The notes beneath the pieces were generated by a model. The model saw only the letters and a program-made list of their open reading frames with translations. It made no database searches and was not told the DNA's origin. Shown here piece by piece: positions 1-53,064 of a stretch of 64,000 nucleotides of DNA (the stretch's first letter is position 1; each line of letters begins with the position of its first letter). Position numbers and translations under genes: made by a program. This DNA is from an uncultured Cytophagia bacterium (lineage in GTDB: Bacteria; Zhuqueibacterota; Zhuqueibacteria; Thermofontimicrobiales; Thermofontimicrobiaceae), in contig CAZYNP010000028.1 of the NCBI GenBank assembly GCA_964647995.1, positions 1,151 through 65,150 on the forward strand, read 5' to 3'.

Positions 1-397
1 TCAATCGCACTTCGGGCGAACGGGGAGCGAGCGCCACAGCGCTGTCCATGGCGGCAAAGCCCTGTTTCATGTACTTCATTTTCTCCCAGGGCAAAAAGGC
101 CTCCCTGGCCTTCATGGTCAAGACCGAGCCGTAGTACACCAGCGCCACAGCATGTTGCGGTTCGATTTTCAACAGTCTCGATAAATAATTTTCTGCCTGT
201 TCGACAGCCGCCTCATCCTCTTCGACACCTGCCAGATCGTGATAGGCTTTGCCAAGTTTCAACAGCAGTTCGGTATTATTGGTATCCGCTGCAAGTTGTT
301 TTTCCCACTGGGGAATCTGGGCCAACAGATAGCCCGAACCGAGCATTCCGACCAGAACGATGGTTTGAACGAACATATAAATTCTGTTTCGCATCAT
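1..397 (-). CDS. Partial CDS running off the window edge. It encodes a secreted TPR-like protein with an N-terminal signal/TM segment (MMRNRIYMFVQTIVLVGMLGSGYLLAQ...).
   Basis: Manual reverse-complement translation from the ATG at about 395-397 gives a hydrophobic N-terminus followed by TPR-like helical repeats (LLKLGKAYHDLAG, AENYLSRLLKIEP). No in-frame stop occurs before position 1. The ORF track does not list it because it is truncated. Confidence 0.45.
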   Translation of the reverse strand, partial: MMRNRIYMFVQTIVLVGMLGSGYLLAQIPQWEKQLAADTNNTELLLKLGKAYHDLAGVEEDEAAVEQAENYLSRLLKIEPQHAVALVYYGSVLTMKAREAFLPWEKMKYMKQGFAAMDSAVALAPRSPEVRL

Positions 398-672
398 AGC
401 CCTCCGTGTTTTGATTGGAAATGAATTTTGAATTTCGGTGGATAAAGATAATGATTTTGGGAAGAAAAAAAATCAAAAAGCGATGGAGGAAGATTTTAAT
501 AGGATAAAGCAGTGGATTTGAGGGATGAGATAAAAAATTATTTGTTTTAGGATGATCTGCTATGAGTGAAGTGAGCTACAGGTTAACTGATAAGAATGCT
601 TACCAATAATCTCTATCGAGTAAAAAATTGCCAGATGTGTCTTCAAGCTAATGATATTTAAATCTTATTCTG

Positions 673-1077
673 CTAAAGTTCTTCCATTTTTTTTGAACGA
701 GGTTTAATAATATAAGCAAACGGTTTTTTGGTTTTACGTGCCGCCTGCTTAATATCAGACCATGAGATAATAATTTTCTCAACCATTTGCCAGTAGGTGT
801 AGCCTTTTTTTGAAGGAGGTTTCAGAAAGATCACTCCCATTTGGTATTTTCTGTATAATTCTCTTTGATGCCTGGTGCGTTGTATATTCAAGTCCTGGGT
901 AATTACAACACCATTCTCATTCGCTATTTTTACAATCCATGTTTCATCACGAGATCCTCGTCCAAAAACATCGGATAGATTGCTCGCTTCAATATTTTCA
1001 TGAGCAAAGGGGCTTTGTAATATATTAAGGGCATTTGCTATTTGGGGTGGAATGTTTTCATCAAAATAAATTTTCAT
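673..1077 (-). CDS. DUF5615-family PIN-like toxin component (MKIYFDENIP... N-terminus).
   Basis: The N-terminus MKIYFDENIPPQIANAL matches the characteristic MxFLxDENxP start of DUF5615 proteins. It is about 134 aa and its start overlaps the stop of the upstream DUF433 gene by 4 nt (ATGA). Confidence 0.6.
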   Translation of the reverse strand: MKIYFDENIPPQIANALNILQSPFAHENIEASNLSDVFGRGSRDETWIVKIANENGVVITQDLNIQRTRHQRELYRKYQMGVIFLKPPSKKGYTYWQMVEKIIISWSDIKQAARKTKKPFAYIIKPRSKKMEEL

Positions 1078-1754
1078 GCAGCCATCCTTTGTTCATACAT
1101 GACGGCGTCGTCAATGTCACTTATCTTTAAATTATAAATTGAAGCAAGGTACTCTTTTTTTTCTCCCGCTGATAGTAATTTAATCAAAGAATTTGTGGTA
1201 ATATTGGTACCAGAGATTATAGGTTGCCCGAAACAATGATGAGGATCAACCACAACAGCATGATCTTTTCCTAAAGGCCAATAGCGTTCAGCTAATTGGG
1301 TTTCTCCATTAAAATCGATTTTTTTGCAAAATGGCTCAATGATTTTTTTAAAAGACTGTTGTAATGATTTGTTTAAATCAATAAGAATAGAATCATTATA
1401 ATCCCAGAAGATCAGTTTACCATCACTCATTAATCTTGATATGGCGAACGGATAGGCGAAGTTTTGCAATTTGGTTAGTTGGTCATGAGCTATCTTGATT
1501 TTTTTAAATGAGACACCAATTTGTCTTAGAGCATGGACGGTAATAATTTCAATCAGGGTATAAAAATTGAAAGCCTTATTTCGTTGTTCTCCCCAGGTAT
1601 AGGTCATGTCGCTGTTATTGATAAAATCAGATTCCCAATATTTTTTAACCCATCTTCCAATTAAGCTTTTGGGGAGACCTAAAATTATTGAAGCTTCAGG
1701 TATTGTAAATATCCCTTCCCCAATTGAAGGTTCAGCTTTTAAATCAATTAACAT
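1074..1754 (-). CDS. DUF433-domain antitoxin-like protein with an N-terminal extension of about 150 aa.
   Basis: The C-terminal segment DPHHCFGQPIISGTNITTNSLIKLL resembles the DUF433 core (CxGKPxIRGTRI). The gene is translationally coupled to the downstream DUF5615 gene, a classic DUF433/DUF5615 pairing. Confidence 0.55.
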   Translation of the reverse strand: MLIDLKAEPSIGEGIFTIPEASIILGLPKSLIGRWVKKYWESDFINNSDMTYTWGEQRNKAFNFYTLIEIITVHALRQIGVSFKKIKIAHDQLTKLQNFAYPFAISRLMSDGKLIFWDYNDSILIDLNKSLQQSFKKIIEPFCKKIDFNGETQLAERYWPLGKDHAVVVDPHHCFGQPIISGTNITTNSLIKLLSAGEKKEYLASIYNLKISDIDDAVMYEQRMAA

Positions 1755-1892
1755 GCTATCTCCTTAAATTTAGCTTGATGGCTAAAAAAATATATAAAAA
1801 TTTTATTTATTTGTCAAGTAATAAATCAACAGAGTACAATAATATTTAAACATGAAGAATTTATGACAGAGCTATCTGGCGCCCAATGAACA

Positions 1893-2267
1893 ACTAACAA
1901 ATCTGTTGACGCTATTTTTTTCTTATATTAAACTGAACTTATTTCAGTTCAATTATCCAATTATATGAACTCGATTCAATTCACTATGAGGAAAATTGCT
2001 CTCAGGAATTTTACAGGCGCTGGCGGACTGGAATCAATAATGGGAAACGGGAGAGATTTTGTGAGGGTGGAAAAATAGTTTTTCTATGTGCAAAACTGGA
2101 TGATCCCAAAATCAAGCAAAGGGAAATAAATAGCTTGCTCGCCGCCATGGATGAGTTCGATGTAACCGAAGGTCTGATCTTAACCCTGGATGAATCAGGA
2201 TCGGAAAAGATCGGCGACAAAAGGATTCGCTGGCAGTCGATCTGGCAATGGCTATTGGAATAGCTAA
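1893..2267 (+). repeat. Direct repeat copy A, about 375 bp and about 95% identical to 3704..4086. It contains a frame-shifted remnant of an AAA+ ATPase (DUF4143-type) C-terminus.
   Basis: By-eye alignment of 1893-2267 with 3704-4086 shows a shared TTGAC...T-rich leader followed by sequence encoding ...KIVFLCATLDDPKIKQREINSLLAAMDEFDVTEGLILTLDESGSEK.GDKRIRWQ.IW.WLLE. In copy A the reading frame is broken near the start (MRKIALRNFTGAGGLESIMGNGRDFVRVEK*). Confidence 0.8.
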
Positions 2268-2322
2268 TCATCTCGCCAAATATTTGCTTGACAATTTGAG
2301 ATTATTTATGTATTTTACTTTT

Positions 2323-3516
2323 ATGACAAACGAAGAATTAATAAACCTGATCGCCAGCGGCGAGGATAGCAAGACACAATTTAAACTTAAATTTGAGAAC
2401 ATTGATAAATTATCTGCTGAAATCGCTGCCATGGCCAATTCCGAAGGTGGAATAATTGTAGTAGGTGTTGGCGATAATGGCGAGATTGTCGGCGTGGAAG
2501 ACCTTCCTAAATTAAATCAATGGATTTCCAATGCTGCTTCTCAAAAAATTCTGCCACCCATTCAGGTCATTACGGATAATGTGATTTACCAAAATAAACT
2601 GGTAGTTTGTATAAAAGTCCCATTGGGTACCAATAAACCTTATGCGGTGAACCAAACTGACTTTTGGGTGAAAGTTGGTGCCGATAAGCGCCGTGCCACT
2701 CGTGAGGAACTGCAGCGATTGATGCAGGCTGCTGCCATATTGCATGCAGATGAAAAATCTGTCATGGGAACAAGCATCAACGATTTAAACTTAGCGTTAT
2801 TTCAAGATTTTTATTTCGAGGAATATGAGCAAGAATTGCCTGAAAATCCCAATGAGGTAGCAACCATACTATCGAATTTGAAATTATTAAAAGAGGGACA
2901 AGCGACGCTGGCGGGGCTATTATTGTTCGGCAAAAAACCCGAGATAATCCTGCCACAATTTGTAATCAAAGCAGTCTGTTTTGTGGGAGAAGATGAAAGC
3001 GAAAATTCATTTATCGATAAAATTACAATTGGCGATATCCTTTCCTCTCAATTCCTGAACACCATGGCTTTTTTTAAGAGGAATCTGAAATATGTTCAGC
3101 GCAATGATTCGTCATTTAATGTAGCGGGTGAGCTGGAAATCCCCGTACGGGCTTTGGAAGAAGCGGTTACCAATGCCCTGCTCCATCGGGACTATTTGAT
3201 CCAAAGCAGCATCCGCATTTTTATTTTCAGAAATCGTATTGAAATTATAAGCCCAGGTGTACTTCCCAATACTGTGACCATTGAAAACATCAAACAAGGG
3301 ATACAGGTCGCCCGCAATCCAATATTGCTGTCTTTTGCTGCTAAATTAAGCCGACATAGGTATGAGGAATTGGGGCTGAAAATTCCATATAGCGGCATTG
3401 GTACGGGGATCAAACGAATTTTGAAAGAATGCAAAAATGCGGGAATTGCCCCGCCAGAATTCATTGAGGATCGGATCACGGGTCAATTCAAGGTGATTTT
3501 TGCTCGAAAAATATAA
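2323..3516 (+). CDS. ATP-binding protein with a divergent AAA (AlbA_2/Schlafen-like) N-terminal domain and a HATPase_c_4 (RecG C-terminal-like) domain.
   Basis: The N-terminus MTNEELINLIASGEDSKTQFKLKF...MANSEGGIIVVGVGDNGEIVGV is the AlbA_2 hallmark. The C-terminus EEAVTNALLHRDY...ISPGVLPN is HATPase_c_4-like. The start is taken at the ATG at 2323 rather than the upstream in-frame ATG at 2248. Confidence 0.7.
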   Translation: MTNEELINLIASGEDSKTQFKLKFENIDKLSAEIAAMANSEGGIIVVGVGDNGEIVGVEDLPKLNQWISNAASQKILPPIQVITDNVIYQNKLVVCIKVPLGTNKPYAVNQTDFWVKVGADKRRATREELQRLMQAAAILHADEKSVMGTSINDLNLALFQDFYFEEYEQELPENPNEVATILSNLKLLKEGQATLAGLLLFGKKPEIILPQFVIKAVCFVGEDESENSFIDKITIGDILSSQFLNTMAFFKRNLKYVQRNDSSFNVAGELEIPVRALEEAVTNALLHRDYLIQSSIRIFIFRNRIEIISPGVLPNTVTIENIKQGIQVARNPILLSFAAKLSRHRYEELGLKIPYSGIGTGIKRILKECKNAGIAPPEFIEDRITGQFKVIFARKI

Positions 3517-3521
3517 TTATT

Positions 3522-3548
3522 GTAGGACAAGATGCCATCTTGTCCTAC
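3522..3548. terminator. Perfect 13-bp-arm palindrome (gtaggacaagatg c catcttgtcctac) immediately 3' of the AlbA_2 gene; likely a terminator hairpin.
   Basis: The inverted repeat is visible in the sequence. A T-rich run follows on the minus strand and a weaker one on the plus strand. Confidence 0.45.
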
Positions 3549-3703
3549 AAAGCATAGCCCCCCAAAATCTGCCTGGTAATATTATCGGGCGTTATGCGTT
3601 TATGTATTAGGTTATTCGCCATAAGCTTTGCAGCCGACGCCAGCCTCCCTCTCACGTTCATCTTATTTGACTCCCGATTAAAATTATTGAATGGCTACAA
3701 AAA

Positions 3704-4086
3704 ATAACTGACAAATGTGTTGACCAGAAGTTTTTTTTCTTTTATTAAGCTGAACTGATTCCGATTCAATTATTCATGTGTGTAAACTCGATTCAATTCA
3801 CTATGAGAAAAAATTGCACTCAGGAATTTTACAGGCGCTGGCGGACTGGAATCTATAACGGGAAACAGGAGAGATTTTGTGAGGGTGGAAAAATAGTTTT
3901 TCTATGTGCAACACTGGATGATCCCAAAATCAAGCAAAGGGAAATAAATAGCTTGCTCGCCGCCATGGATGAGTTCGATGTAACCGAAGGTCTGATCTTA
4001 ACCCTGGATGAATCAGGATCGGAAAAGCTCGGCGACAAAAGGATTCGCTGGCAGCCGATCTGGAAATGGCTTTTGGAATAGCTAAT
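3704..4086 (+). repeat. Direct repeat copy B, paired with 1893..2267.
   Basis: See copy A. This copy retains an intact 101-aa ORF (3776..4081) encoding the ATPase C-terminal fragment. Confidence 0.8.
3776..4081 (+). pseudogene. C-terminal fragment of an AAA+ ATPase (DUF4143 family). It is a gene remnant lacking the ATPase core.
   Basis: The 101-aa ORF ends ...GLILTLDESGSEKLGDKRIRWQPIWKWLLE, the typical C-terminal tail of DUF4143 ATPases. Compare the intact member at 60077..61417 (...IPIEVKSG...LKIFLDEHP...). There is no Walker A/B upstream. Confidence 0.55.
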
Positions 4087-4152
4087 GGCTTCTTTTGAAT
4101 TCGCGATGATTTTGATCTACCTTAGCATCAAAAAAACCTGAACGGGCTGCAG

Positions 4153-4196
4153 AAAAGAATAAAAACCCTTCCGAAGGTTCCAAACCTTCAGAAGGG
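4153..4196 (-). terminator. Rho-independent terminator for the minus-strand gene ending at 4219.
   Basis: The 12-bp stem cccttccgaagg/ccttcagaaggg (one G-U wobble) has a ttccaaa loop and is followed on the minus strand by a U-tract (plus-strand aaaagaataaaaa). Confidence 0.6.
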
Positions 4197-4218
4197 TCAC
4201 GTAATCATTTGAAACGGA

Positions 4219-5595
4219 TTATTTCTTCAATTTTTCCAGCGCCCTTTTGGCATCTTCATAGCTGGAATCTAACTGCAGTGCTGCCTCATACGCTTGTTGC
4301 GCAGCCGCTTTATCACCCTTGAGCTCATAAAGTGCCCCCAGCCGAAAATGAGCGTTGGCCCAGGTGGGTTGATTCTCCCCTGGCTCATGCTGCAAATACA
4401 ACTTCAGGCATTCGATCCCTCGTTCCAGATTGGCCCCCGAAAAAACCGCTGTGCGACCGATCTGATACAAAGCAGGATAATAGTCGGGGTGATTTTTGAT
4501 GATCATTTCAAAAATTTTGAAGGCATTATCGTATTGCTTCTTTTGCTGATACAAAAAGCCAACCTGCATCTCGATTTCGATGGTTTGCTCATGATTATTT
4601 TTGATGAGTTCCTGGACCAGGTGCTCTACCTTTTGAGTGTCGCCTTTTTCCAGCAAAATATTGGCATAGGATGAGGCAAAATAACGATCAATTTTGCCAA
4701 CATTCCCGTTAATGACGCGATCGGCCAGCTCGACCCCTCGATCATAATTACTTTTTGAACTGAGGCAATACATGAGGTAAGACCTGACGAGCATTTGGCT
4801 CTCAGGAAATTTCGATATTAATTGGTCGAAAACTTTACTTGCTTTTTCCGACTGCTCTTTATTCACCAGGCTGCGATAAAAATCTCCAAAAACCACATCC
4901 AGAAATTGGCTAGTGGGAAATTCAGTGGCAAACTCCAGCACGGCTTCGGGACCTGAATAAGTGGCGGCAAAGCGAGCCAATTCATAAGCGGAAACCTCGG
5001 CGCTATCTTTGCCAAACGGCAACATGACTTGCCTGGCTCGTTCTGGCTGGCTCAATATTTTTTGAGCGAACTCCGCCATCTTTTCAAAGGCAAAATTCGA
5101 GCGGTACTTTTCCACCAGCCGAGCCAGAACTGCCACCTCTGCAGGATCTTTTTCATAAGCCTGCATTAAATTCAAGAAGTTGTTTTCACCGTGGTAGGTT
5201 TTTTCCAATGTATCCTTGAATTTTTCGGGAGGTGGGTCATAGCCTAGCACCCGATCGATTTCCTGGCCGTCGGCGGTAACGACCATCACCGTCGATGTGG
5301 CTCGAACCGAGAATTTTTTATAAATCTCATCTCCGTCAGGTTGACCCCGATGGGCGCGAAATAGCAGAAAATTTTGGGTGAGATAGGGATGAAATTGTTC
5401 ATCCTGGAAGAATTGCTTGTCCAGCAATCGGCAGCCACCTCAGCCAGCCGAGTAAAAATCGATCAGAATCTTCTTGCCGTCCTTCGCCGCCGTCGCCATC
5501 GCCTCATCGAATGATCCTTTGAACCAGAGTTCATTCTGAGCAAATAACGGTAGGGCGAAGACCAGAAGGATCAACAGCATCAACGGTTTTTTCAT
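4219..5595 (-). CDS. Candidate selenoprotein with a signal peptide, a thioredoxin-fold (Thioredoxin_7/DUF255-like) domain and C-terminal TPR repeats. An in-frame UGA at 5440..5442 is read as selenocysteine (FYSAG-U-GGC-R).
   Basis: The track ORF (4219..5427) starts at TTG. Manual translation upstream in the same frame gives MKKPLMLLILLVFALPLFAQNELWFKGSFDEAMATAAKDGKKILIDFYSAG-TGA-GGCRLLDKQFF... from the ATG at 5593-5595. The TGA falls at the first Cys of the expected CxxC motif. A 6-7 bp hairpin with a GGACA apical loop lies 11 nt downstream of the UGA (CGAUUGCU GGACA AGCAAUU), consistent with a bacterial SECIS element. Confidence 0.55.
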
Positions 5596-5907
5596 TCCTC
5601 GCTCCTGATTTTGGTTCATGATTGAATAGCTGGATTCGGTTATTTAATTAATCAGCCAATACCGTGGGCCACTACGCATTGACCTGACCTGGCCTGTTCA
5701 CGCCAGACCCTGGAATCGTTCCCGAAAAAATCGTTATCCGGGAGCTATGGCAACAAAATAACCCTAAATTAATTCAAAAAGCAACCAGAAATTATTGAAA
5801 TTTGGGAGCACATCAAATTTAGAAAAAAATATTCAACCGATGGCCCAAATCGCAGCCCATTCATCCCAGAACCATTCTGGCACCGGGGTGACGGAATTGA
5901 GCTCAAG

Positions 5908-7071
5908 CTATTTGATCACTAAATTGAGTCCCGTAAACCTGGTGCCAGTTAGCGGATGATCGTTCTCAATTTCAAATTTGCTCCATTGGTATTGCAGGTC
6001 GAAATGATCGGTGACCAGGCGGAGGGTTCGACTCTCCGGGAAAAACCGAGACGCCAATTTCAGCCACCCGGCCAGACCCACACCAATGCCTCTGGTGGTA
6101 TAGCGAACCTGGCCATCCAGATCTTCGTATCTCCCCTGTTGCAAATACACTACTTCCAGGAAATTGATCTGCCAGCCTAGCATTTGAATACTACTGAAAT
6201 TATTTATGAGCAAATCTTCTTCCTCAGTCGCCCATTGGAACGAACTGAGCGTCCAATCCAGGTTGCGCTGCCGCAGGATCATGCCCAGATCGAAACTCAA
6301 GCCCACCCGGGCCGTGCGTGGCAGAGGATCGGACTGAGAAGCCTCGATGTAGGTAATTTCGTCTCCGATATTCCTCATGGCATAGGCCAGCTTGGTAGTG
6401 ACAAACGGCTGCAGGATGCCATGTTTGGATAAGGAAATCGCCAGCGGTTGGCGAATTAAATCCAGCACTGGAACCTGCGCTATGGCGCCGATGTCGAAAG
6501 CGGTCGCTTCGGCCTTGATATCTTTCCATTTTTCCTGCGAAAAGGTTTTCCCCAATCGGCTATCGATTAATTTGATGCTCAGCCCGAAACCCGCTGTAAT
6601 TGCGCCTTGCCAGCCCAAACCGATGGTAATGGCCTCCGATTTTTCCCAGACTTTAAAGGGGCCAAATACCTCACCAGCAGCGTTCTCACAACTTTGGCTT
6701 CCGAGGTCCAGGTATGTTCTTTGAAAACCGATGCCAGCGCTCAGCGCTCCCGGCAATTTAAACCCCACGTTAAAAGCTTTGTTATCGTAAAAAATATCAT
6801 TCGTAATGGCAGGCAACCAGCTCACTCGCTGCGGATAAAAGCCCATCGAAAATCGATGGTTCAGAGAAAAGAGGCCCAGGGTGGCAGGATTATAGAATGC
6901 GATCATGGCGTCCGTTTCGGGCAGGCTCAGAAAAGTCTGTCCCAAGCCATTGGCACGAGGGGACGGGGAAATCAGCAAGAACAAGCAGGCGGCATCGGAT
7001 GCGGCGAAACCAGTGCTCGCCAAAAAACAGATCGCAATAAGAGCCATCAGGACGAGTTTTAGGGTTTTCAT
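5908..7071 (-). CDS. Outer-membrane beta-barrel protein of the PorV/PorQ-like (FadL-like) family; T9SS-associated.
   Basis: It has a signal peptide. The N-terminal motif SPRANGLGQTF...DAMIAFYNPATLG resembles the ARAxALGGA...NPAGL signature of PorV/PorQ/PorP-type barrels, and the size is 387 aa. Other T9SS cargo proteins lie in the window. Confidence 0.45.
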   Translation of the reverse strand: MKTLKLVLMALIAICFLASTGFAASDAACLFLLISPSPRANGLGQTFLSLPETDAMIAFYNPATLGLFSLNHRFSMGFYPQRVSWLPAITNDIFYDNKAFNVGFKLPGALSAGIGFQRTYLDLGSQSCENAAGEVFGPFKVWEKSEAITIGLGWQGAITAGFGLSIKLIDSRLGKTFSQEKWKDIKAEATAFDIGAIAQVPVLDLIRQPLAISLSKHGILQPFVTTKLAYAMRNIGDEITYIEASQSDPLPRTARVGLSFDLGMILRQRNLDWTLSSFQWATEEEDLLINNFSSIQMLGWQINFLEVVYLQQGRYEDLDGQVRYTTRGIGVGLAGWLKLASRFFPESRTLRLVTDHFDLQYQWSKFEIENDHPLTGTRFTGLNLVIK

Positions 7072-7528
7072 TTTTCACTCCTTCTGATCGGTTAACTTTG
7101 GACTGCGACGTTTAATTTATTAAACTCTGGACAACTTCCACAGGTTTCCGCAATTATTCAATATTGCCTGAACTCAACCAACCGAATTACCGAAAGACAA
7201 CAGCAGATGAGATCGGTATCCGTTTTCCAGTCCGGTAATTCGATTTTCTGTTCATCACACCTGACGGCCAAAAATTGCTTGACAATCATTGATAAAAATT
7301 GTATCTTTCCAGCCTTTTGAAACCACCGGATGTTAGCGAATTTTGATATAGTTATCGCTATACCGCCTGGAAGTTTTTTTTGGCCACGGATGTTAAATTC
7401 AGAGCGGTTGGGATCGAATTTGGGGGATGGTTCTGGTGTGCATTTAGTTCTTCATTATCTGGGCAATTAGATTCAAGGCGATATCGAATCCGGTGAAACT
7501 ATTCACTTTCTGCTACTGGAGATTTGAA

Positions 7529-8557
7529 ATGAGACGATTAGCGAAACTTTGGCAGCGCGGAAAAGATTTTTTAGGGGTGGAAATACCCATCATGGCCGGC
7601 GCTATGACCTGGATTTCGGATCACCGACTGGTGACAACGGTCTGTAATCATGGCGCATTCGGCTGCATGGCCGGGGGCAATATGCCACCGGAAGCTTTTT
7701 CGCAAGAGATCGATAAAATCAAGCGACTAACCGATAAGCCCTTCGCGGTGAATTTGATCACTATTGCGCCGAATTATCAGGAACATCTACGCATTGCGGC
7801 GACCAAACAGGTGCCGTTCATTATTTTCGCCGGCAGCATTCCCAAGGGGTCTGAAATCAAAATCGCCAAAGACAGCGGCGCCAGAGTTCTGGCCTTTGCC
7901 TCCAACGAAAGCATCGCCGAAAGGATGCTCGCTTCCGGCGTGGATGCGCTGATTCTGGAAGGGAGCGAAGCCGGTGGCCATATTGGGCATGTGTCGCTGA
8001 TTATTTTACTGCAACAGGTGCTTTTCACCATCCAGGATAAGCCGGTTTTCGTAGCGGGAGGCATCGCCACCGGCAAATTGATGGCACATCTGCTGTTGAT
8101 GGGAGCCGCAGGGATTCAGATGGGCACACGCTTTGTGATGACCGAAGAGTGTCAGGTGCATCCCAAATTCAAAGAGGCATTTATCAAAGCCAAAGCCCGA
8201 GACGCCGTGGCCACACCTGCCGTGGGTTCGGAATTGAATGTGGTCGCAGTTCGTGCCATTCGCAATAAAGGGATGGCTGAATTTGCTGATCTCCAGATGG
8301 ATTTGATTCAAAAACATCGTCGAGGAGAAATTACCAAAAAAGATGCTCAGTATCAGGTGGAGAATTATTGGGTCGGTGCACTGCGTCGGGCAGTTCAGGA
8401 CGGTGACGTAGATTATGGGTCATTGATGGCTGGTCAAAGTGTGGGGTTGGTCCATAAAGTCCAACCCATGAAAGAGATGTTTGACGAAATCATCGGCGAA
8501 GCCGAAGCTGAACTCGAAAGCATTTATCAACGGTTAGGGTGCGAAGCTGCAGTTTGA
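7529..8557 (+). CDS. Nitronate monooxygenase / NPD-family (FabK-like) flavin oxidoreductase.
   Basis: LGVEIPIMAGAMTWISDHRLVTTVCNHGAFGCMAGG and GSEAGGHIG motifs are typical of the 2-nitropropane dioxygenase family. A GGAG ribosome-binding site precedes the ATG at 7529; the track ORF begins upstream at 7493. Confidence 0.7.
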   Translation: MRRLAKLWQRGKDFLGVEIPIMAGAMTWISDHRLVTTVCNHGAFGCMAGGNMPPEAFSQEIDKIKRLTDKPFAVNLITIAPNYQEHLRIAATKQVPFIIFAGSIPKGSEIKIAKDSGARVLAFASNESIAERMLASGVDALILEGSEAGGHIGHVSLIILLQQVLFTIQDKPVFVAGGIATGKLMAHLLLMGAAGIQMGTRFVMTEECQVHPKFKEAFIKAKARDAVATPAVGSELNVVAVRAIRNKGMAEFADLQMDLIQKHRRGEITKKDAQYQVENYWVGALRRAVQDGDVDYGSLMAGQSVGLVHKVQPMKEMFDEIIGEAEAELESIYQRLGCEAAV

Positions 8558-8567
8558 TCCAAAAATT

Positions 8568-8600
8568 ACTGACCGGTCGTTTTTAGCGACCGGTCAGTTT
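8568..8600. terminator. Bidirectional terminator hairpin between the convergent NMO and dodecin genes.
   Basis: A 12-bp perfect inverted repeat (actgaccggtcg / cgaccggtcagt) has a tttttag loop and T-rich flanks. Confidence 0.55.
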
Positions 8601-8656
8601 CAATACGATACCAACTGGTGTGACAATACGGGAAAATGCTTGGGCGGTATGAAAAG

Positions 8657-8848
8657 CTACTTCACTTCTGCTGCCACTTTTAATTTCACCTGAAATTCAA
8701 CCTCATTCCCCTTGACCGCGCCTCGCTCTTCCACAATTTCGAACCAATATAGCTTATGGCCACCCTCCAAGAGCTTCTTAACCGCACTTTTTACCGCGTC
8801 TGAAAAACTAACGTTTGATATGCCAACCACTTCCATCATGTGGATCAT
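8657..8848 (-). CDS. Dodecin family flavin-binding protein.
   Basis: It is a 63-aa protein and the tail ...VEFQVKLKVAAEVK matches the dodecin C-terminus. It sits in a redox gene cluster. Confidence 0.55.
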   Translation of the reverse strand: MIHMMEVVGISNVSFSDAVKSAVKKLLEGGHKLYWFEIVEERGAVKGNEVEFQVKLKVAAEVK

Positions 8849-8895
8849 GTTATTTCTCCTTCATTTCATCTTGCTTATTTTGTGTATTACCAGTT

Positions 8896-9519
8896 TTATT
8901 CGGGATAGGCCAGAGCCTGCTCGATTGCTCGAACCACTTCTTCGTCTTCCGGAGCGGTACGAGATCCAAATCGAGCCACGATCTTTCCCTGACGATCAAT
9001 CAAGAATTTATTGAAATTCCAGCTAATATCACCGGCAAATTCAGGATTGGTCTCCTTCTCTGTCAGGTATTTATATAGCGGCGCAATGTCTTTTCCTTTC
9101 ACCGAAATTTTGGAAAACATGGGAAAGGTCACCTGGTAATTGACCGAACAAAACTGTTTGATTTCTTCGTTGCTGCCGGGCTCCTGTCCCAGGAAATTAT
9201 TGGCAGGAAAGCCCAAAATCACCAAGCCTTTATCCTTGTATTGCTGGTAGATTTTCTGCAATCCCGCGTACTGTGGGGTATAGCCACAACGACTGGCCAC
9301 ATTCACAATCATGATTACTTTGCCTTTATACTGCTCCAGCTTCTGATCTTTGCCATCAATATCTTTCATTGTAAAGTCATAGATGGATTTCATTTTTTCG
9401 CCTCCTGTCTGTTCATTTGATCGCACGGCTCGATTAGCAATGCCGAGCCCGAGCAATCCCATCAACATCATCGTCATAATTTTCTTCATGGTAAATTCTC
9501 TCCTGAATTCATTAGTCAT
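8896..9519 (-). CDS. gpx: Glutathione peroxidase (Cys form) with a signal peptide.
   Basis: The VNVASRCGYT active-site motif and the WNFNKFLIDRQGKIVARF C-terminal motif are present. Confidence 0.8.
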   Translation of the reverse strand: MTNEFRREFTMKKIMTMMLMGLLGLGIANRAVRSNEQTGGEKMKSIYDFTMKDIDGKDQKLEQYKGKVIMIVNVASRCGYTPQYAGLQKIYQQYKDKGLVILGFPANNFLGQEPGSNEEIKQFCSVNYQVTFPMFSKISVKGKDIAPLYKYLTEKETNPEFAGDISWNFNKFLIDRQGKIVARFGSRTAPEDEEVVRAIEQALAYPE

Positions 9520-9833
9520 GCCAATTAATTTTTATCCATTAGATGCCCGCGAATCTAAAGAGATTCAGCAAGCCAGATGAAAATTAAACAAGTTGCCAAG
9601 GATTTGGGGACACAATCAACTACTGTCAGCAGGACATCAGCCATATCCCCGCAGCAAACGCCCAACCTTGCCGCGCACTCAAGCCTTTATTCTACTACTC
9701 GATATTCAGCGACCCGCTTAGCTCCACAAACCTTCATGGCCCAATCATCATTTCTATAAAATAAAAAACGGATCCCATTTTGACCAGAACAATGGAATCC
9801 GTTATGACCAAAGCATTTAAGGCAGATTTGCGG

Positions 9834-10340
9834 TTAGAATTTTTTGAATTTGTTGCTTGGGACACCGCATACCGGGCATTTATCCGGCAGATCGCCGTCG
9901 ATCTGCGTATAGCCACACACTGGACAGATGTAAACGGTCTTAAGGGCGAAGTCTTTGCCCTGTTTGACCTTTTCTTTTGCTTCTTGATAGTAGGCAGAAT
10001 GTATTTTTTCGGCTTCCACTGCATAATAAATGGATTTTTCCGCACCCTTTTCATTTTGCAGTTTGGCGATGGCGTCATAGGCCGGGTACATCTCCTCCAC
10101 CTCAAAGTTTTCGCCGTTTATGCCGGTCTGCAAATTTTCCTCGGTTTTGCCGATATAGCCGAGATTCCGAGCATGGTTGGTTGCATGAACCTGTTCGGCA
10201 TAGGCAATGGCTTTGAATAGTTTGGCAATGTTGGGATAACCTTCACTCTCAGCGACATCGCTGAAAACCAGATATTTCATGTGCGCCATGGATTCGCCGG
10301 CGAAAGCTTCGTTCAATGATTTTTCAGTCATCTTTTTCAT
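9834..10340 (-). CDS. rbr: Rubrerythrin with a ferritin-like diiron domain and a C-terminal rubredoxin-like CxxC...CxxC domain.
   Basis: FAGESMAHMKYL...EHATNH and the C-terminal ICPVCGY...KCPVCG are present. Confidence 0.8.
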   Translation of the reverse strand: MKKMTEKSLNEAFAGESMAHMKYLVFSDVAESEGYPNIAKLFKAIAYAEQVHATNHARNLGYIGKTEENLQTGINGENFEVEEMYPAYDAIAKLQNEKGAEKSIYYAVEAEKIHSAYYQEAKEKVKQGKDFALKTVYICPVCGYTQIDGDLPDKCPVCGVPSNKFKKF

Positions 10341-10455
10341 GACTAACCTCTCCAGTTGATAATATGAATCTTAAATTAGGTTAATTATTGTCTATTTCGC
10401 CCAGAAACCAGAGGTGATTGCCAGGACAGATATTGGACATAGCTCGATCGGCACG

Positions 10456-10959
10456 CTAAACCATCGGCCAGAACCGATTGTCATACCATACGCTCTCTTG
10501 CAGCGCCTTATCCAATTCACTTAAAAATTGCAAATGGGTCTTTTCCCAATTGGCCAGCCAATCGAAAAGCTCTTTTTCCAGACCATCGCCGGTGGCCTGG
10601 CCGCGTTGCGAATAGAATCTGACCGCATTCTCCTCCATGCCCATAGCCGCAGCAATGGCCGCAGCCTCGTAGCTCGCAGCGGTAATCTGTTCGCGTATTT
10701 TTTGGGTCAACACCGCGTTGCTAATTCCGGGAGAAGATTGCTCATAACTGATTTCCGATAATTTGCCAGCTCGTACCAGGCTGGCATAGTGCCGCGAGAG
10801 GATGTCGATATGCTTTTCTTCCTCTGCGGCCATGGTCTCGAAGACCTCTCTAACAGCTTCGCTGGCAGTATTGCGGGCTGTTGCTTCGTAGAAGGCTTTG
10901 CCCCTGCGTTCCAGCAAAATCGCGCCTTTGATGATGTCCAATGCTTGCTCGTTTTTCAT
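10456..10959 (-). CDS. Rubrerythrin-family ferritin-like protein (erythrin-type, no rubredoxin domain).
   Basis: Ferritin-like helices with paired ExxH-type motifs (AAEEEKHIDIL; MEENAVRFY) and a size of 167 aa. Confidence 0.55.
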   Translation of the reverse strand: MKNEQALDIIKGAILLERRGKAFYEATARNTASEAVREVFETMAAEEEKHIDILSRHYASLVRAGKLSEISYEQSSPGISNAVLTQKIREQITAASYEAAAIAAAMGMEENAVRFYSQRGQATGDGLEKELFDWLANWEKTHLQFLSELDKALQESVWYDNRFWPMV

Positions 10960-10984
10960 GCCTTGCTCCTTCTATTTTTCAGGA

Positions 10985-11404
10985 TCAGTTAGCGTTCTCT
11001 GCTTTCATGAGGCATTCGCTACAAATACCTTTGAAATATCCATGAATGCTCTCAATCCGATGTCCCTCCACGCACATCTCTTCCTGGTAGACACAGGTGA
11101 CATCCAGATCGATGATTTTGCCGCATTGGCGACAAAAAAAATGATGATGCGGTTGCAGGATGTATTCATAGCGGATTTCGGACTCGGTTATGGTCAACAC
11201 ATCAACCAGGTGGTATTTCCGAAAAATATCCAGAGTGTTGTACACCGTGGTTTTTGATAGCGTGGGGACCTTTTTGTAAAGCGCAGCATAGATCATATCC
11301 ACGGTGGGATGGGAATGATTCTTGTCCAGATATTCCAGGATTTTCAAGCGCTGAAAGGTTGGCTTGATGCCGCGGTCGACCAGGATCTGTTTGTATTTTT
11401 CCAT
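10985..11404 (-). CDS. perR: Fur-family transcriptional regulator, likely the peroxide-responsive PerR.
   Basis: Fur-family features are present: the DNA-binding helix PTFQRLKILEYL, the HHHFFCRQCGKIIDL metal site and a C-terminal CxxC. It is adjacent to the rubrerythrin/peroxidase genes. Confidence 0.7.
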   Translation of the reverse strand: MEKYKQILVDRGIKPTFQRLKILEYLDKNHSHPTVDMIYAALYKKVPTLSKTTVYNTLDIFRKYHLVDVLTITESEIRYEYILQPHHHFFCRQCGKIIDLDVTCVYQEEMCVEGHRIESIHGYFKGICSECLMKAENAN

Positions 11405-11414
11405 TTTGATATTT

Positions 11415-11445
11415 TTCTGATTTGATAATCATCCCTAATTTAGAT
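11415..11445. promoter_or_regulatory. Candidate Fur/PerR box in the perR promoter region (tgatttgataatcatccctaattt).
   Basis: GATAATCAT resembles the Fur-box core GATAATGAT and lies about 10-40 bp upstream of the perR start. Confidence 0.3.
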
Positions 11446-11718
11446 TCAATATAATTTAAAATAAATACAAAGTCAAGTGGTTTTTTCACTGTTCTGAGAA
11501 AAGAAATCTGCCGCGACCAATATCGATGTCGCAATTAGTACTTGAGGTAACGCCATCGTTACTCCAGGCTCTGATTCGATGGGACCAACAATTTTTCAGG
11601 GCAACCTTTGCCCAACCGACTGCCCTGGTTAATGGCCTAAGCTTCGCCAAAACTAACTGCCTCCAGGTGGAAATTTGGAGCGAAATTCTCGGTTTGACGA
11701 AATTCCCAATCGTTGGGA

Positions 11719-11768
11719 CAAAAAAAATCCAACTGCCAAAACGGGAGCATCCGGTTTAGCAGTTGGAT
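11719..11768 (-). terminator. Rho-independent terminator downstream of the BNR-repeat gene (minus strand).
   Basis: A 10-bp stem atccaactgc/gcagttggat with a 22-nt loop is followed on the minus strand by an 8-U tract (plus-strand aaaaaaaa at 11719-11726). Confidence 0.5.
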
Positions 11769-11882
11769 GATTCAGGCCCGGAAAATTGAATTAGGTCATC
11801 AAAGCGTATCTTCCGAAAAACGGGGATAACATTAGCCCCTGATTCTGTGCCTCGAGCAGTATTGCCAATGCAACCGATGCCA

Positions 11883-20537: not shown

Positions 20538-21995
20538 ATGCGATCAAAATGTCTACTGGCAGTTTTATTGATGAGCTTATTATTCATCAATTCAGTTTTC
20601 TCCCAGACCTGGGATCAGGCCACAGGTATCGGATTCACTGGCAATGGCATCAAATTTCTTGGCGGCGCAGTAGATCGAGCCGCATTGGGACTTGGCGGCG
20701 GGCTATCACTCAAATATGGCGCTTCACCTTATGTCATGTTCGATCTGAATGCCAATTATGGCAGTTTCAAGCCAACGGTTGACGGCTCGTGGTACAAGAA
20801 AGATGCCAGTGCACCTTTCCGTACCTTCCTTCTGCCGGTGTCGTTGGATATTCGCTTTACACCGGTTTCCGATGGTCGTGTGAAGCCCTACTTTACCTTT
20901 GGCGGTGGGCTGTTGCTCTGGGATTTGCGCAACGTGGCCGGCACCGACAAGAGCTTTTTTGGCGATTATGAACTGCGCTGGGGCGATAGTGTTCATAAGG
21001 GAACTCAGCGTGAATTTGTATTCAAAGGTGGCCTGGGCCTGGAACTCTTTTTCACCCATGCGGTGTCGCTGGATCTGCAGGCGGGAATGCAGTCGTTACT
21101 CAACAACGATCCCAAAGACAATGTTGGCTACGGCGATGCCAACAATTACGCCGCCACCGGCCGGGTTGGACTCAACTTCTACCTGGACTATTACAAGGAC
21201 ACCGATAAAGATGGGATCGAGGATAAAAAGGATGCCGATCCCTTGCGCCCAGAAGATGTCGACGGTTTCAAGGACGATGATGGCGCACCCGATGACGACA
21301 ACGACAATGACGGCGTGCCTGATCTAAGCGACAAAGCGCCCAATCTGGCCGAAGACAAAGATGGCTTCCAGGACGATGATGGCGTGCCCGATCCCGATAA
21401 CGACGGCGATGGCATTCTGGATGTTAACGATAAGGCGCCTAATGAAGCCGAAGACATGGATGGCTTCAAGGATGGTGATGGAATGCCCGATCCCGACAAC
21501 GACGGCGATGAGATCCTGGATGTCAACGATAAGTGCCCTGGAACGGATGCGACCGTTGCTAACGGCGAGAATACCAAAGAAACTTTCAATGGCTATCAGG
21601 ATGACGATGGTTGCCCTGATACCAAGCCAGTACCAGTTCAGTTAGAAAAGACAGGCGCAAAACTGGTACTCAAAGGAGTGAATTTTGAAACCGGCAGCGC
21701 AACGCTAACCAAGGAATCCTATGCGATTCTGGATGAAGTAATTGCTGGTTTGCGCGATAACAAAGATGTCAGCATTGAGATCCGTGGTTATACCGACAGT
21801 CAGGGGGCTGCGGCAGCCAATCAGAAATTATCGGAACGTCGCGCCAATACGGTGCTGCAATATCTGGTTACCAATGGCATCGAGCCCACCCGCTTGAAAG
21901 CGGTAGGCCTGGGCGAGAAGGATCCGATTGCATCCAATAACACACCCGAGGGACGCGCGCAAAATCGACGCATCGAGTTTGTGCGCACTAAGTAA
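20538..21995 (+). CDS. OmpA-family outer-membrane protein with an N-terminal beta-barrel, thrombospondin type-3 (TSP3) calcium-binding repeats and a C-terminal OmpA peptidoglycan-binding domain.
   Basis: It has a signal peptide and a good ribosome-binding site (AAGGAG). The Asp-rich D.D.DG..D..D repeats occur five to six times. The C-terminus IEIRGYTDSQG...LSERRANTV...NRRIEF is the OmpA signature. Confidence 0.8.
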   Translation: MRSKCLLAVLLMSLLFINSVFSQTWDQATGIGFTGNGIKFLGGAVDRAALGLGGGLSLKYGASPYVMFDLNANYGSFKPTVDGSWYKKDASAPFRTFLLPVSLDIRFTPVSDGRVKPYFTFGGGLLLWDLRNVAGTDKSFFGDYELRWGDSVHKGTQREFVFKGGLGLELFFTHAVSLDLQAGMQSLLNNDPKDNVGYGDANNYAATGRVGLNFYLDYYKDTDKDGIEDKKDADPLRPEDVDGFKDDDGAPDDDNDNDGVPDLSDKAPNLAEDKDGFQDDDGVPDPDNDGDGILDVNDKAPNEAEDMDGFKDGDGMPDPDNDGDEILDVNDKCPGTDATVANGENTKETFNGYQDDDGCPDTKPVPVQLEKTGAKLVLKGVNFETGSATLTKESYAILDEVIAGLRDNKDVSIEIRGYTDSQGAAAANQKLSERRANTVLQYLVTNGIEPTRLKAVGLGEKDPIASNNTPEGRAQNRRIEFVRTK

Positions 21996-34706: not shown

Positions 34707-34710
34707 TCAA

Positions 34711-52138: not shown

Positions 52139-52159
52139 TTTGGCCGTCGCTTCCCCTTA

Positions 52160-53032: not shown

Positions 53033-53064
53033 GTGTAGAAAAAAATTTCTCAATCACGATTAAA

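Follow-up and report, generated by a model that had tools for sequence, protein, structure and literature searches.

Internally deleted copies of a DUF4143-type ATPase gene form direct repeats on both sides of a TrlG-like AlbA_2 gene

PDC-S01 is a very common, unvalidated single-gene candidate that combines an ATPase with a PD-(D/E)XK domain (PMC12988326; PMC3424549). AlbA_2 domains are statistically associated with defence loci (PMC12988326; PMC12680541). In the TRL operon of Photorhabdus laumondii (trlR-trlF-trlG), which includes the regulator TrlR and is associated with a temperature-restriction phenotype, and in plasmid TrlF/TrlG pairs, the partner of TrlG is TrlF, an SMC/AAA_21-type, Ppl-like protein. 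The window (the whole 64,000-nucleotide stretch of DNA analysed here, to which all coordinates refer) contains a TrlG-like gene between two direct repeats derived from a PDC-S01-type gene. The region was compared with the corresponding loci of two related strains (L001 and L016) and of an outgroup (L017), and has the following organization:

673..1754, minus strand: DUF433 (1074-1754) and PIN_10-DUF5615 (673-1077) gene pair with a 4-nt overlap
1882..2268, plus strand: repeat copy A, an ATPase pseudogene with an internal deletion; promoter, leader and codons 1-19 are followed by about 70 codons of the 3’ end
2288..2322, plus strand: predicted AlbA_2 promoter (TTGACA-17-TATTTT), ending 6 nt before the ATG
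2323..3516, plus strand: AlbA_2 (Schlafen-like) + HATPase_c_4 gene, intact, 397 aa, TrlG homologue (PF04326, E 5e-22; PF13749, E 2.8e-18)
3517..3696, no strand: spacer between AlbA_2 and copy B, shared with L001 and L016; a hairpin with a 14-bp stem lies at 3520-3550
3697..4086, plus strand: repeat copy B, an ATPase pseudogene with the internal deletion of copy A
3776..4081, plus strand: 101-aa ORF (92 aa in the JGI call), a chimeric reading frame and no gene

The direct repeats were confirmed at 1882/1893-2268 (copy A) and 3697-4086 (copy B), essentially where a sequence-only reading of this DNA had placed them; they are ~93% identical overall, slightly less than the ~95% given there. That reading was also right about the intact AlbA_2/HATPase_c_4 gene between them and the DUF433/DUF5615 pair upstream on the minus strand. 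The 5’ limit of copy A was set by homology to L001 copy A and to the region upstream of full-length L011 genes (‘CCCAAT...’). The repeat search yielded two segments, 1992-2268/3810-4086 (277 nt, 97%) and 1915-1995/3732-3812 (81 nt, 84%). Segment by segment, 81 of 99 positions are identical in 1893-1991 (82%), 94 of 98 in 1992-2089 and 174 of 179 in 2090-2268 (96-97%); the alignment has 4-5 gap columns, and about 27 of the 376 aligned positions differ, indels not included. The similarity is far above the chance level, and in both copies it stops 5 nt past the stop codon (TAG CTAAT). No further copies were found within the 64-kb window, and no inverted repeats in its positions 1-8000.

Each repeat is an AAA_14/DUF4143 (PADLOC PDC-S01) ATPase gene with an internal deletion. 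The landmarks, all on the plus strand, are as follows:

1906..1934, plus strand: ATPase promoter remnant, -35 hexamer TTGACG
1934..1983, plus strand: leader; its operator-like palindromes are TGAACTTATTTCAGTTCA, which is perfect, and TGAACTCGATTCAATTCA, which has 1 mismatch
1996..2052, plus strand: the gene’s own TTG start, preceded by GAGG, with codons 1-19 of the N-terminus (tblastn with P0004 residues 3-21: 74% identity, E 9e-5)
2038-2040, plus strand: premature TAA of copy A, W15 to stop (TGG to TAA, codon 15)
2047..2056, plus strand: deletion junction of copy A, from alignment to the 5’ and 3’ ends of full-length L011/P0004, same in copy B; junction string GGGAAACGGGAGAGATTTTGTGAGGG
2053..2263, plus strand: C-terminal ATPase remnant of copy A (tblastn with P0004 residues 376-434: 76% identity, E 7.5e-24)
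2053-2083, plus strand: degraded part of this remnant, with small deletions
2084-2260, plus strand: last 59 codons of copy A, followed by the stop codon at 2261-2263
Copy B, plus strand: degenerate palindrome 3751-3768; TTG start 3814; TAA 3856-3858; junction near 3865-3874; last 59 codons 3902-4078; stop 4079-4081

What remains in both copies is the 5’ part of the gene (promoter, leader with its palindrome, SD, TTG start and codons 1-19), followed directly and in a different frame by about 70 codons of the 3’ end; approximately codons 20-358 (~340 codons, roughly 1.0 kb) are missing from both. In tblastn searches with P0004/P0005 (434 aa, AAA_14 + DUF4143), residues 1-21 matched 2002-2058/3814-3876 in frame 1 and residues 376-434 matched 2084-2260/3902-4078 in frame 2, residues 22-375 being absent from both copies. 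At the N-terminus, SGILQALADWNQ*WETGEI of the repeat aligns with SGIIQALADWNPWWETGKV of the ATPase, the start region of copy A matches the L011 gene start at 42 of 50 nt, and the 19-21 retained codons are 62-74% identical to full-length family members. Downstream of the junction, 2053-2090 aligns, with small deletions, with the C-terminal ‘...ETDFVIRE..IALQVCAK’, and the last 59 codons are 73-76% identical to P0004 and 92-95% to L001 copy A. The copies are colinear across the junction with zero gaps, and the change of TGG to TAA at codon 15 is common to both; the same junction and the same premature TAA in A and B therefore point to one deletion event, later duplicated or gene-converted. No obvious long microhomology that would explain the deletion was seen at the junction.

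Thus the N-terminus, C-terminus, promoter and leader retained in the repeats all align with full-length members of the PDC-S01/COG1373 family, and the proposed origin from the DUF4143-type ATPases holds. In L001, a 266-aa ORF with PF13635 (E 6.7e-21) reads in frame into the corresponding segment and is identical at 54 of the last 59 codons. PF13173 (AAA_14 P-loop), found in relatives P0004-P0017, gave no Pfam match for the repeat ORF at E up to 10. PF13635 (DUF4143) is missing from the window copies and present in the allelic copy A of L001 and L016 (E 6.7e-21); hence the repeats are derived from the family, yet encode no members of it. Other details of the sequence-only reading had to be revised. 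What it took for the last 100 codons or so includes only ~70 C-terminal codons, 59 of them well preserved, and 1996-2052 is the start of the gene. Copy B, described as intact, has lost ~340 codons and carries TAA at codon 15, its ORF starting from an ATG in the 5’ UTR. Copy A is frame-shifted only in the limited sense that a 1-nt difference near 1990 takes this fortuitous ATG out of frame. The ATPase gene at 60077-61417, suggested for comparison, has no similarity to the repeats, and its product is 23% identical over 136 aa to their parent family.

For the 5’ 100 nt of the repeats, the matching sequence at the unrelated loci L011 and L012 is the promoter and 5’ UTR of full-length genes; the promoter of copy A aligns with TTGACA-17-TATATT of the full-length L011 gene, its spacer being 4 nt shorter. 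The leader palindrome TGAAC-N8-GTTCA is conserved, copy A being its sole perfect match in 64 kb, and it is degenerate in copy B. GAAC-N8-GTTC was found at a fixed position in 18 of 20 upstream regions of the repeats’ ATPase family, a set that includes proteins only ~50% identical. No covariance model of Rfam 15 matched 1700-4300 at E up to 1. A strongly conserved palindromic putative operator in the leader of PDC-S01, a very common and uncharacterised defence-candidate family, is a modest lead for follow-up.

The product of the AlbA_2 gene, whose true start is probably the ATG at 2323, aligns over its whole length with a plasmid TrlG-type protein (43% identity, E 2e-110); the proteins are colinear, of ~385-400 aa, with N-terminal PF04326 and C-terminal PF13749. 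Exact look-ups of the window protein (397 and 422 aa) gave no match, and orthologues in related strains are 87-97% identical. The promoter hexamers and their distance to the ATG are kept in L001, L016 and L017, the sequence of the spacer being variable; as far as its sequence indicates, the gene is expressed from this predicted promoter of its own, and the transcript is probably leaderless.

The upstream DUF433/PIN pair (PF04255, E 8.4e-12; PF18478, E 1.3e-19; PF18480, E 1.2e-3) has the layout of a type II toxin-antitoxin system, with two small, overlapping adjacent genes encoding a DUF433 protein and a PIN-like predicted toxin. It is present in the window and in the outgroup L017, and absent from L001 and L016. 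Together with the PDC-S01-type ATPase, this pair supports the view of the neighbourhood as a variable, defence-type region. No integrase, plasmid or phage genes were found nearby, and no recombinase among the neighbouring ORFs.

The sequence-only reading had proposed comparing related strains for presence or absence of the AlbA_2 cassette. AlbA_2 orthologues were found in L001, L016 and L017, with an ATPase 3’ end upstream in each. In L001 and L016, the same gene is ruined in another way at position A, where codons 148-434 (287 codons) are left as an in-frame fragment; this fragment has its own stop codon and ends 60 nt before the AlbA_2 ATG, and the promoter and codons 1-12 lie 3.4 kb upstream, with an ECF-sigma cluster between. 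In L017 (~83% nt identity) a 3’-end vestige, ATGGCGATTAGAATCGCTAAT, is found in the same place (score reached in 1 of 1000 shuffles), and copy B is absent. From the fragments in L001 and L016 and the vestige in L017, the position of an ATPase gene directly upstream of AlbA_2 is ancestral. Since neither position A nor position B carries a full-length ATPase gene in any of the strains found, this ancestral state is reconstructed, not observed. Copy B is 99-100% identical in L001, and in L016 it has the same junction.

The two copies resemble each other in a mosaic fashion. Over the first 99 nt, A and B are 82% identical, but copy A of the window and of L001 89%; from 1992 on, A and B are 96-99% identical. 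At 2154 and 2185-2186, both copies of L016 have bases peculiar to that strain. The base at 2094 differs by locus in all three strains, and that at 2246 distinguishes A from B where readable (copy B of L016 ends early). The mosaic pattern and the variants shared in L016 support the earlier suggestion that recombination within the ATPase family shaped the locus. At 2041 and 2049 the window copy A has the ancestral base and the resident copy B a derived one, and at 2094 and 2246 copy A has A-type bases; therefore copy A was not merely overwritten recently by the present copy B, and recent B-to-A gene conversion as the sole event is contradicted. To the left of ~2322 the window is ~3% diverged from L001, compared with 0.5-0.9% to the right, which points to additional recombination between strains.

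The repeats are probably two copies of one deleted ATPase pseudogene allele, brought to both positions by homologous exchange. Starting from the observed anatomy, the common junction and stop codon, the alternative alleles elsewhere and the mosaic, concerted pattern, we infer how the events were ordered, and that the copying took place by conversion, as follows. First, an ATPase gene of the repeats’ family would have stood directly upstream of the TrlG-like AlbA_2 gene. Second, another ATPase copy would have stood, or arisen, downstream of it; a decayed paralogue, a duplication and an integration are candidate sources of copy B. Finally, the deleted allele would have come to occupy both positions through homologous exchange between the two copies, the likely route being ectopic gene conversion, that is, repair of a double-strand break with the deleted paralogue as template. 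The repeats encode no functional protein and are neutral wreckage; recombination between them may favour the loss or amplification of the 1.8-kb AlbA_2 unit. The locus is a product of ordinary decay and recombination in a defence-type neighbourhood, and no new kind of element.

A duplication-mediated insertion, also considered in the sequence-only reading, could have occurred only in a modified, Campbell-type form, and we regard it as unlikely. A circle carrying a deleted ATPase copy, AlbA_2 and the spacer would have entered a full-length ATPase gene already at the locus by recombination within the 3’ end common to both, giving the order ATPase - AlbA_2 - spacer - deleted copy, which is the ground plan of L001 and L016; copy A of the window would have been converted later. 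The two direct repeats indeed bracket exactly one gene and a spacer, and a crossover in the last 59 codons gives exactly the L001-type order. A parallel was found in Thermoanaerobacterales L006, where a 67-nt 3’ remnant of a PF09820/PF08011 ATPase gene precedes an AlbA_2 homologue and a full-length ATPase gene with the same 3’ end follows it. However, AlbA_2 already adjoins the ATPase 3’ end in the outgroup L017, which is without copy B, so importation of AlbA_2 is unnecessary. Moreover, the scheme needs a prior deleted copy beside AlbA_2 elsewhere, and the surroundings are free of integrase, plasmid and phage genes.

Three unrelated partner families were found upstream of TrlG-like genes: TrlF; PF09820 + PDDEXK_9; and AAA_14 + DUF4143. 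This repeated placement right behind unrelated NTPase genes is another modest lead for follow-up. It is conceivable, though we consider it improbable, that TrlG-like AlbA_2 nuclease genes are the constant effector of a modular two-gene system with an interchangeable, apparently dispensable upstream NTPase partner; in this clade the ATPase partner seems to have been destroyed in three independent ways, AlbA_2 being intact throughout. If so, TGAAC-N8-GTTCA would be the putative binding site of a regulator of PDC-S01 genes, possibly an autoregulator, and the two remnants could titrate this regulator or pass regulated transcription on to AlbA_2. The idea of an obligate ATPase-AlbA_2 pair was dropped: AlbA_2 was absent within 3-8 kb at all 18 metagenome loci of the P0004 family and at L011-L014, and the AlbA_2 homologue in L018 has no adjacent ATPase gene.

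It is very unlikely that the repeats are a non-autonomous mobile element, derived from a mobile ATPase cassette by reduction to the two ends that mobilisation requires. An internal deletion that spares both gene ends, in two copies, is MITE-like, and at the unrelated loci where full-length family genes occur, the homology has sharp limits, starting ~60 nt before the -35 hexamer and ending ~8 nt past the stop. But these ends are ordinary gene boundaries without terminal inverted repeats or target-site duplications, the 64-kb window contains no more copies, the chimeric ORF forms a single one-contig cluster among 5.8 billion proteins, and no repeat-type junction was found in 18 metagenome family loci. 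A transposon, MITE or integron cassette was thus dismissed (no terminal inverted repeats, target-site duplication, recombinase or attC site), as was an IS. Two further candidates were rejected, a diversity-generating retroelement (no RT ORF nearby; mixed A/B substitutions A/C, T/C, C/A and A/T, not adenine-specific) and a tandem duplication of the repeat with AlbA_2 (the sequence past copy B is unlike the AlbA_2 promoter and start).

Still less probable is that copy B encodes a functional small protein (92-101 aa), or that the promoter and operator left in the repeats have a regulatory role, such as that of an operator decoy or of read-through control of AlbA_2. The ORF begins at a 5’-UTR ATG and reads the N-terminal codons in the wrong frame. 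It is open in the window and in L001, but it is missing from copy A and from copy B of L016 (where the call is 30 aa only), and it has no Pfam match. Against 5.8 billion proteins it found only itself and one 32% match to an unrelated C-terminal fragment, and a first metagenome scan with the 101-aa ORF found nothing. A reading of the whole ORF as the ATPase C-terminus was rejected as well, being based on a weak gapped tblastn match (QEFYRRWRTG... to KEFYY-WKNS...); the same nucleotides fit the N-terminus far better in the other frame (14/19, ungapped), and the upstream DNA fits the family promoter and leader. The palindrome of copy A is intact and points into AlbA_2, but that of copy B is degenerate, the promoter spacer of copy A is shortened, and AlbA_2 has a conserved promoter of its own. 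The last 59 codons of A and B differ by 4 nonsynonymous and 1 synonymous changes, which argues against either role. The publicly annotated 92-aa ‘hypothetical protein’ is an artefact.

The sequence-only reading had also suggested that AlbA_2 replaced the body of one DUF4143 ATPase, the repeats being two halves or edges of a single disrupted gene. ATPase-derived sequence does flank AlbA_2 on both sides, but each repeat holds both the 5’ and the 3’ end, so AlbA_2 is not inside one split gene; AlbA_2 lies downstream of the ancestral ATPase in L001, L016 and L017, the 287-codon fragment of the first two having its own stop codon, and we give this reading hardly any credence. An assembly artefact, a collapsed or duplicated repeat, has a negligible probability: short-read contigs do break within both copies, but the copies differ at ~7% of positions (besides indels) and so are no assembly duplication, L001 and L016 independently assemble AlbA_2 - spacer - copy B as well as ATPase 3’ end - AlbA_2, and independent Logan contigs, 100% identical to window positions 1-2030 and 3998-12755, break where a genuine two-copy genome predicts, ≤1 nt from the forced branch points of a graph whose k we take to be 31.

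The attractive reading of the locus is thereby corrected, AlbA_2 being no cassette swapped into an ATPase gene and copy B no intact remnant. The locus provides a strain-resolved example of decay and recombination in a defence-type neighbourhood, with one ancestral ATPase gene in three different wrecked states and one loss-of-function allele at two loci.

Among known systems, PDC-S01 includes the gene that gave rise to the repeats: P0004 matches PDLC04787 with E 5e-112 and is 83% identical to the A-copy of L001, and the fragment in L001 matches PF13635 and, weakly, Mrr_cat. The window copies differ in being pseudogenes without the whole AAA_14 domain and the Pfam-defined DUF4143 domain, and the intact gene of the window at 60077-61417 belongs to another subfamily (23% identity). 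The AlbA_2 gene shares the architecture of TrlG, with PF04326 at residues 14-125 and PF13749 near the C-terminus (PMC7554251), and likewise lies directly downstream of an NTPase gene. Unlike in the TRL operon, the upstream partner is or was a DUF4143 ATPase instead of TrlF and is destroyed in every strain seen, and there is no trlR; the search for TrlF or TrlR homologues beside AlbA_2 found none, its neighbour being the DUF4143 ATPase remnant. Direct repeats that contain a gene 3’ end and bracket a short accessory segment resemble attL/attR-type elements; however, integrase and excisionase are absent, the repeats also contain the gene 5’ end, and the bracketed gene is ancestral to the locus (L017). 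Finally, the mosaic similarity of A and B, the shared variants of L016 and the identical deletion junction resemble concerted evolution by ectopic, including pseudogene-templated, conversion between paralogues, with the difference that the shared state here is a ~1-kb deletion, a loss-of-function allele.

The sequence-only reading had placed direct repeats around the AlbA_2 gene, with a DUF433/DUF5615 pair upstream, and the repeat search, alignment and Pfam matches bear this out:

Upstream of the repeats, minus strand: overlapping DUF433 and PIN_10 (DUF5615) genes
About 1893 to 2268: copy A (left limit from gapped alignment)
2323-3516, plus strand: intact AlbA_2 ORF between the copies; PF04326 (SLFN_AlbA_2, E 5e-22) and PF13749 (HATPase_c_4, E 2.8e-18)
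About 3704 to 4086: copy B (left limit from gapped alignment)

The repeat search of the window returned one pair of 277 nt (1992-2268 / 3810-4086, 97% identity) and a second of 81 nt (1915-1995 / 3732-3812, 84%), with a 1-nt indel between the two pairs. Both copies end 5 nt past a stop codon (TAG CTAAT). They agree at 81 of 99 positions in 1893-1991, 94 of 98 in 1992-2089 and 174 of 179 in 2090-2268; about 7% of positions differ.

The 101-aa ORF of copy B (3776-4081) matched no Pfam family and had no similarity to the window's intact AAA_14 + DUF4143 gene (60077-61417), the comparison first proposed for the repeats; among 5.8 billion proteins it matched only itself and one 94-aa fragment. Looking up its protein by exact match pointed to a contig of a sister strain, L001 (JGI 3300045276). 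On that contig a 266-aa ORF, matching PF13635 (E 6.7e-21) and, weakly, Mrr_cat, has the repeat's last 59 codons as its own in-frame end (54 of 59 identical to copy B). The open frame of this fragment runs upstream to family residue 148, and a search with it retrieved full-length AAA_14 + DUF4143 relatives, namely P0004 and P0005 (434 aa, 83-84% identity) and P0006 from KSB1 MAGs (69%). Their N-termini read xNSGIIQALADWNPWWETG..., and frame 1 of the repeat at 2002-2058 reads SGILQALADWNQ*WETGEI. In tblastn, ATPase residues 1-21 map to 2002-2058 / 3814-3876 in one frame, and residues 376-434 to 2084-2260 / 3902-4078 in a different one. Over its 5' 100 nt, the repeat aligns with promoter and 5'-UTR sequence that full-length genes have at unrelated loci (at one, L011, an SD and then a GTG or TTG start come after TTGACA-17-TATATT), and 2053-2090 aligns, with small deletions, with the C-terminal '...ETDFVIRE..IALQVCAK' region. 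From the tblastn ends and these alignments, each repeat can be read as a whole ATPase gene minus about codons 20-358, made up of promoter, leader, start, codons 1-19, an out-of-frame join near 2047-2056 and approximately the last 70 codons. Each copy thus holds both ends of the gene, and the proposal that the repeats are C-terminal remnants of a cassette swap is rejected.

The deletion junction is common to both copies, with gap-free alignment across it, as is a TGG to TAA change at codon 15. The 92-aa protein called by JGI begins at a 5'-UTR ATG and reads the N-terminal codons in the wrong frame; it is missing from copy A, where a 1-nt difference puts the ATG out of frame, and from copy B of a second sister strain, L016 (JGI 3300038379, about 95-97% identical). 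Because junction and stop are shared and the ORF is a wrong-frame chimera, the description of copy B as intact and copy A as frame-shifted was a misreading; judged by sequence, one pseudogene allele is present twice.

Over window 2090-13996, L001 has 99.1-99.5% identity. Copy B, with an identical junction, is present in both sister strains, and the DUF433/PIN pair is absent from both. At position A they share a structure unlike that of the window: promoter and codons 1-12 (L001 4774-4892), 2.7 kb of foreign sequence, then ATPase codons 148-434 ending 60 nt before the AlbA_2 ATG. In the foreign segment (L001 4893-7597, and likewise L016), an ECF sigma factor, a zf-HC2 anti-sigma factor and a secreted 388-aa protein stand in for codons 13-147; L001 4893-5420 is without a called gene. 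The outgroup L017 (JGI 3300033149; AlbA_2 87% identical in amino acids, about 83% in nucleotides) shares with the window the left flank (TPR gene, PIN, DUF433) as well as AlbA_2 and its promoter. All that is left of the ATPase between flank and AlbA_2 is a vestige of its 3' end (ATGGCGATTAGAATCGCTAAT against ATGGCTATTGGAATAGCTAAT), whose score was reached by just one of 1000 shuffles and which lengthens to about 110 nt under looser alignment. L017 is without copy B, and its downstream genes are different; its ECF sigma/anti-sigma/zinc-ribbon set (7024-8699) sits past AlbA_2 and is on the opposite strand. Since an ATPase 3' end precedes AlbA_2 in L001, L016 and L017, an ATPase gene directly upstream of AlbA_2 appears to be ancestral, and it is seen in three independent states of destruction.

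The two loci also appear to have exchanged sequence. The first 99 nt of the window's copy A are 89% identical to L001 copy A versus 82% to copy B, and from 1992 on copy A is 96-99% identical to copy B. Within the last 59 codons, position 2094 is locus-specific: each of the three B copies has the B-type base, and the A copies of the window, L001 and L016, like the outgroup gene, have the A-type base. Position 2246 splits likewise where readable (L016 copy B stops short of it). Positions 2154 and 2185-2186 are strain-specific, common to both copies of L016. Such a pattern is characteristic of gene conversion that has occurred repeatedly between the loci. Copy A cannot simply have been overwritten in recent times by the resident B, since it still has the ancestral bases at 2041 and 2049. 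Window and L001 diverge by roughly 3% left of about 2322 and by 0.5-0.9% to its right, and the window genome is itself probably an inter-strain recombinant near that point. Four nonsynonymous to one synonymous differences between the copies in the last 59 codons, a promoter spacer 4 nt short in copy A and a degenerate leader palindrome in copy B are consistent with neutral decay.

The most likely history involves two paralogous ATPase copies, one deletion and subsequent homologous exchange. A PDC-S01-type ATPase (PDC-S01 being a PADLOC phage-defence candidate family) would have stood upstream of a TrlG-like AlbA_2 gene, and a second copy would have stood or arisen downstream. A single deletion would have removed about 1 kb from one copy, and in the window lineage homologous exchange between the retained ends would have put the deleted allele at both loci, probably by double-strand-break repair templated by the deleted paralogue. 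Insertion or replacement would instead have disrupted copy A in the L001/L016 lineage, and in the L017 lineage it would have been deleted almost entirely. The main rival is Campbell-type integration, in which a circle carrying the deleted copy, AlbA_2 and the spacer entered via the shared 3' end. The L001 arrangement would then follow in a single step from a crossover within the last 59 codons, and L006 (Thermoanaerobacterales) has a parallel layout; however, AlbA_2 already stands beside the ATPase 3' end in L017, which lacks copy B, and a recombinase is absent nearby.

An assembly artefact fails the tests, given the divergence of the copies, the independent sister assemblies and the Logan breakpoints. 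AlbA_2 - spacer - copy B, as well as ATPase 3' end - AlbA_2, were assembled independently in L001 and L016. Logan contigs (SRR10095342, SRR10095340) match window 1-2030 and 3998-12755 with 100% identity, and end within 1 nt of the branch points forced in a de Bruijn graph of k = 31, which we take to be the Logan k, by the identical runs 2001-2035 / 3819-3853 and 2095-2209 / 3913-4027. For the middle stretch (2031-3997) in its exact present form, the window assembly is the sole source. A functional small protein (the copy B ORF) and MITE-like, DGR and integron readings each fail their defining tests.

The parent family of the repeats is PDC-S01 (P0004, E 5e-112); the window's other ATPase scores E 2.7e-137 with a different PDC-S01 model. 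PDC-S01 is a very common, experimentally unvalidated candidate combining an ATPase with a PD-(D/E)XK domain (PMC12988326), and DUF4143/COG1373 is among the listed PD-(D/E)XK families (PMC3424549). In the ATPase subfamily of the repeats the leader carries an operator-like palindrome, TGAAC-N8-GTTCA(A), just past the -10:

Window 1934-1951, 1966-1983 and 3751-3768: operator-like palindrome
Upstream regions of L011, L012, L025-L038 and L041: the same palindrome

Of 20 upstream regions, 18 have GAAC-N8-GTTC at -62/-63, -78 or -81 relative to the start codon, among them regions of about 50%-identical proteins with non-aligning flanks, and a second site or half-site often follows about 32 nt downstream. 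Invariant arms around a variable spacer suggest a DNA site bound by a protein, not an RNA hairpin; no Rfam match was found for the palindrome. In an unrelated metagenome, L041 (Ga0247727_10128511, 100-460) is another wreck of this ATPase family, retaining the promoter, both palindromes and the first 59 codons (through Walker A GKST) before unrelated DNA cuts in; such 5' remnants may be common. The conserved putative operator is worth carrying forward.

Elsewhere in the window, 59-aa and 402-aa ORFs (4219-5619, minus strand) form one frame with a single in-frame TGA (5440-5442), and L001 has the same split call. The translation, ...DFYSAG*GGCRLLD..., reads as the redox motif U-G-G-C; the protein is of Thioredoxin_2/TPR type and has a signal peptide, and a 7-bp hairpin begins 10 nt past the TGA; no Rfam SECIS match was found, and the gene is a candidate selenoprotein. 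Three tandem 99-nt Asp-codon-rich coding repeats (…DGFKDDDGAPDDDNDNDGVPD…; 21252-21548) in a 485-aa ORF (20538-21995) look like calcium-binding, thrombospondin-type-3-like repeats. Two adjacent inverted-repeat pairs of 51 and 74 nt (22229-22399 and 34652-34811, 74-78% complementary), about 12.3 kb apart, bracket a block of large plus-strand ORFs. Repeat families are densely packed in 51554-56213:

Within 51554-56213: six copies of a 48-nt unit (TTTTCTCCCACAGAAATGAAATCCCACCGAAATG...)
Within 51554-56213: four copies of a 42-nt AATTAGCG-rich unit
54228-54559: three tandem copies of a 110-nt unit
51997-52040 / 55181-55224: 44-nt inverted pair, 89% complementary

The AlbA_2 gene has its own promoter, TTGACA-17-TATTTT (window 2288-2325; L001 8488-8525; L017 5580-5617), with hexamers and spacing kept in L001, L016 and L017 and a variable spacer sequence. 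It stops 6 nt short of the ATG, which suggests a leaderless mRNA; the 422-aa call, which begins within the repeat (ATG 2248), probably overextends the gene. The product is a full-length homologue of plasmid TrlG-type proteins (43% identity, E 2e-110), whose genes overlap an upstream 'TrlF family AAA-like ATPase' by 19 nt; on the IncC plasmid pNDM102337 this pair lies inside a type I R-M operon. The Photorhabdus operon trlR-trlF-trlG restricts growth at 36 C, the selected mutations being all in trlG and none in trlF (PMC7554251), and bacterial AlbA_2 domains are statistically linked to defence loci and carry a Schlafen/SAMD9-type nuclease site (PMC12680541). Closer homologues (58-60% identity), from Thermoanaerobacterales and other metagenomes, lie directly behind a PF09820 + PF08011 NTPase-nuclease gene. 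Three unrelated NTPase families are found directly upstream of TrlG-like AlbA_2/HATPase_c_4 genes: TrlF (SMC/AAA_21-type, Ppl-like), PF09820 + PF08011, and AAA_14 + DUF4143. Loci with TrlG-like genes behind NTPases are:

L006 7900-11200 and L007 1-2520
L019-L023
L043 and L044 (plasmids NZ_CP026566.1, NC_019045.2)

The pairing is not obligate, and the recurrent order of NTPase gene then TrlG-like gene across these families should be carried forward. At L006 AlbA_2 lies between a 67-nt 3'-end remnant of the PF09820/PF08011 gene, upstream, and a full-length copy with the same 3' end, downstream, which mirrors the repeat - AlbA_2 - repeat layout of the window. The case, though well documented, is one of ordinary gene decay and ectopic recombination in a variable defence-type neighbourhood and is not new in kind.
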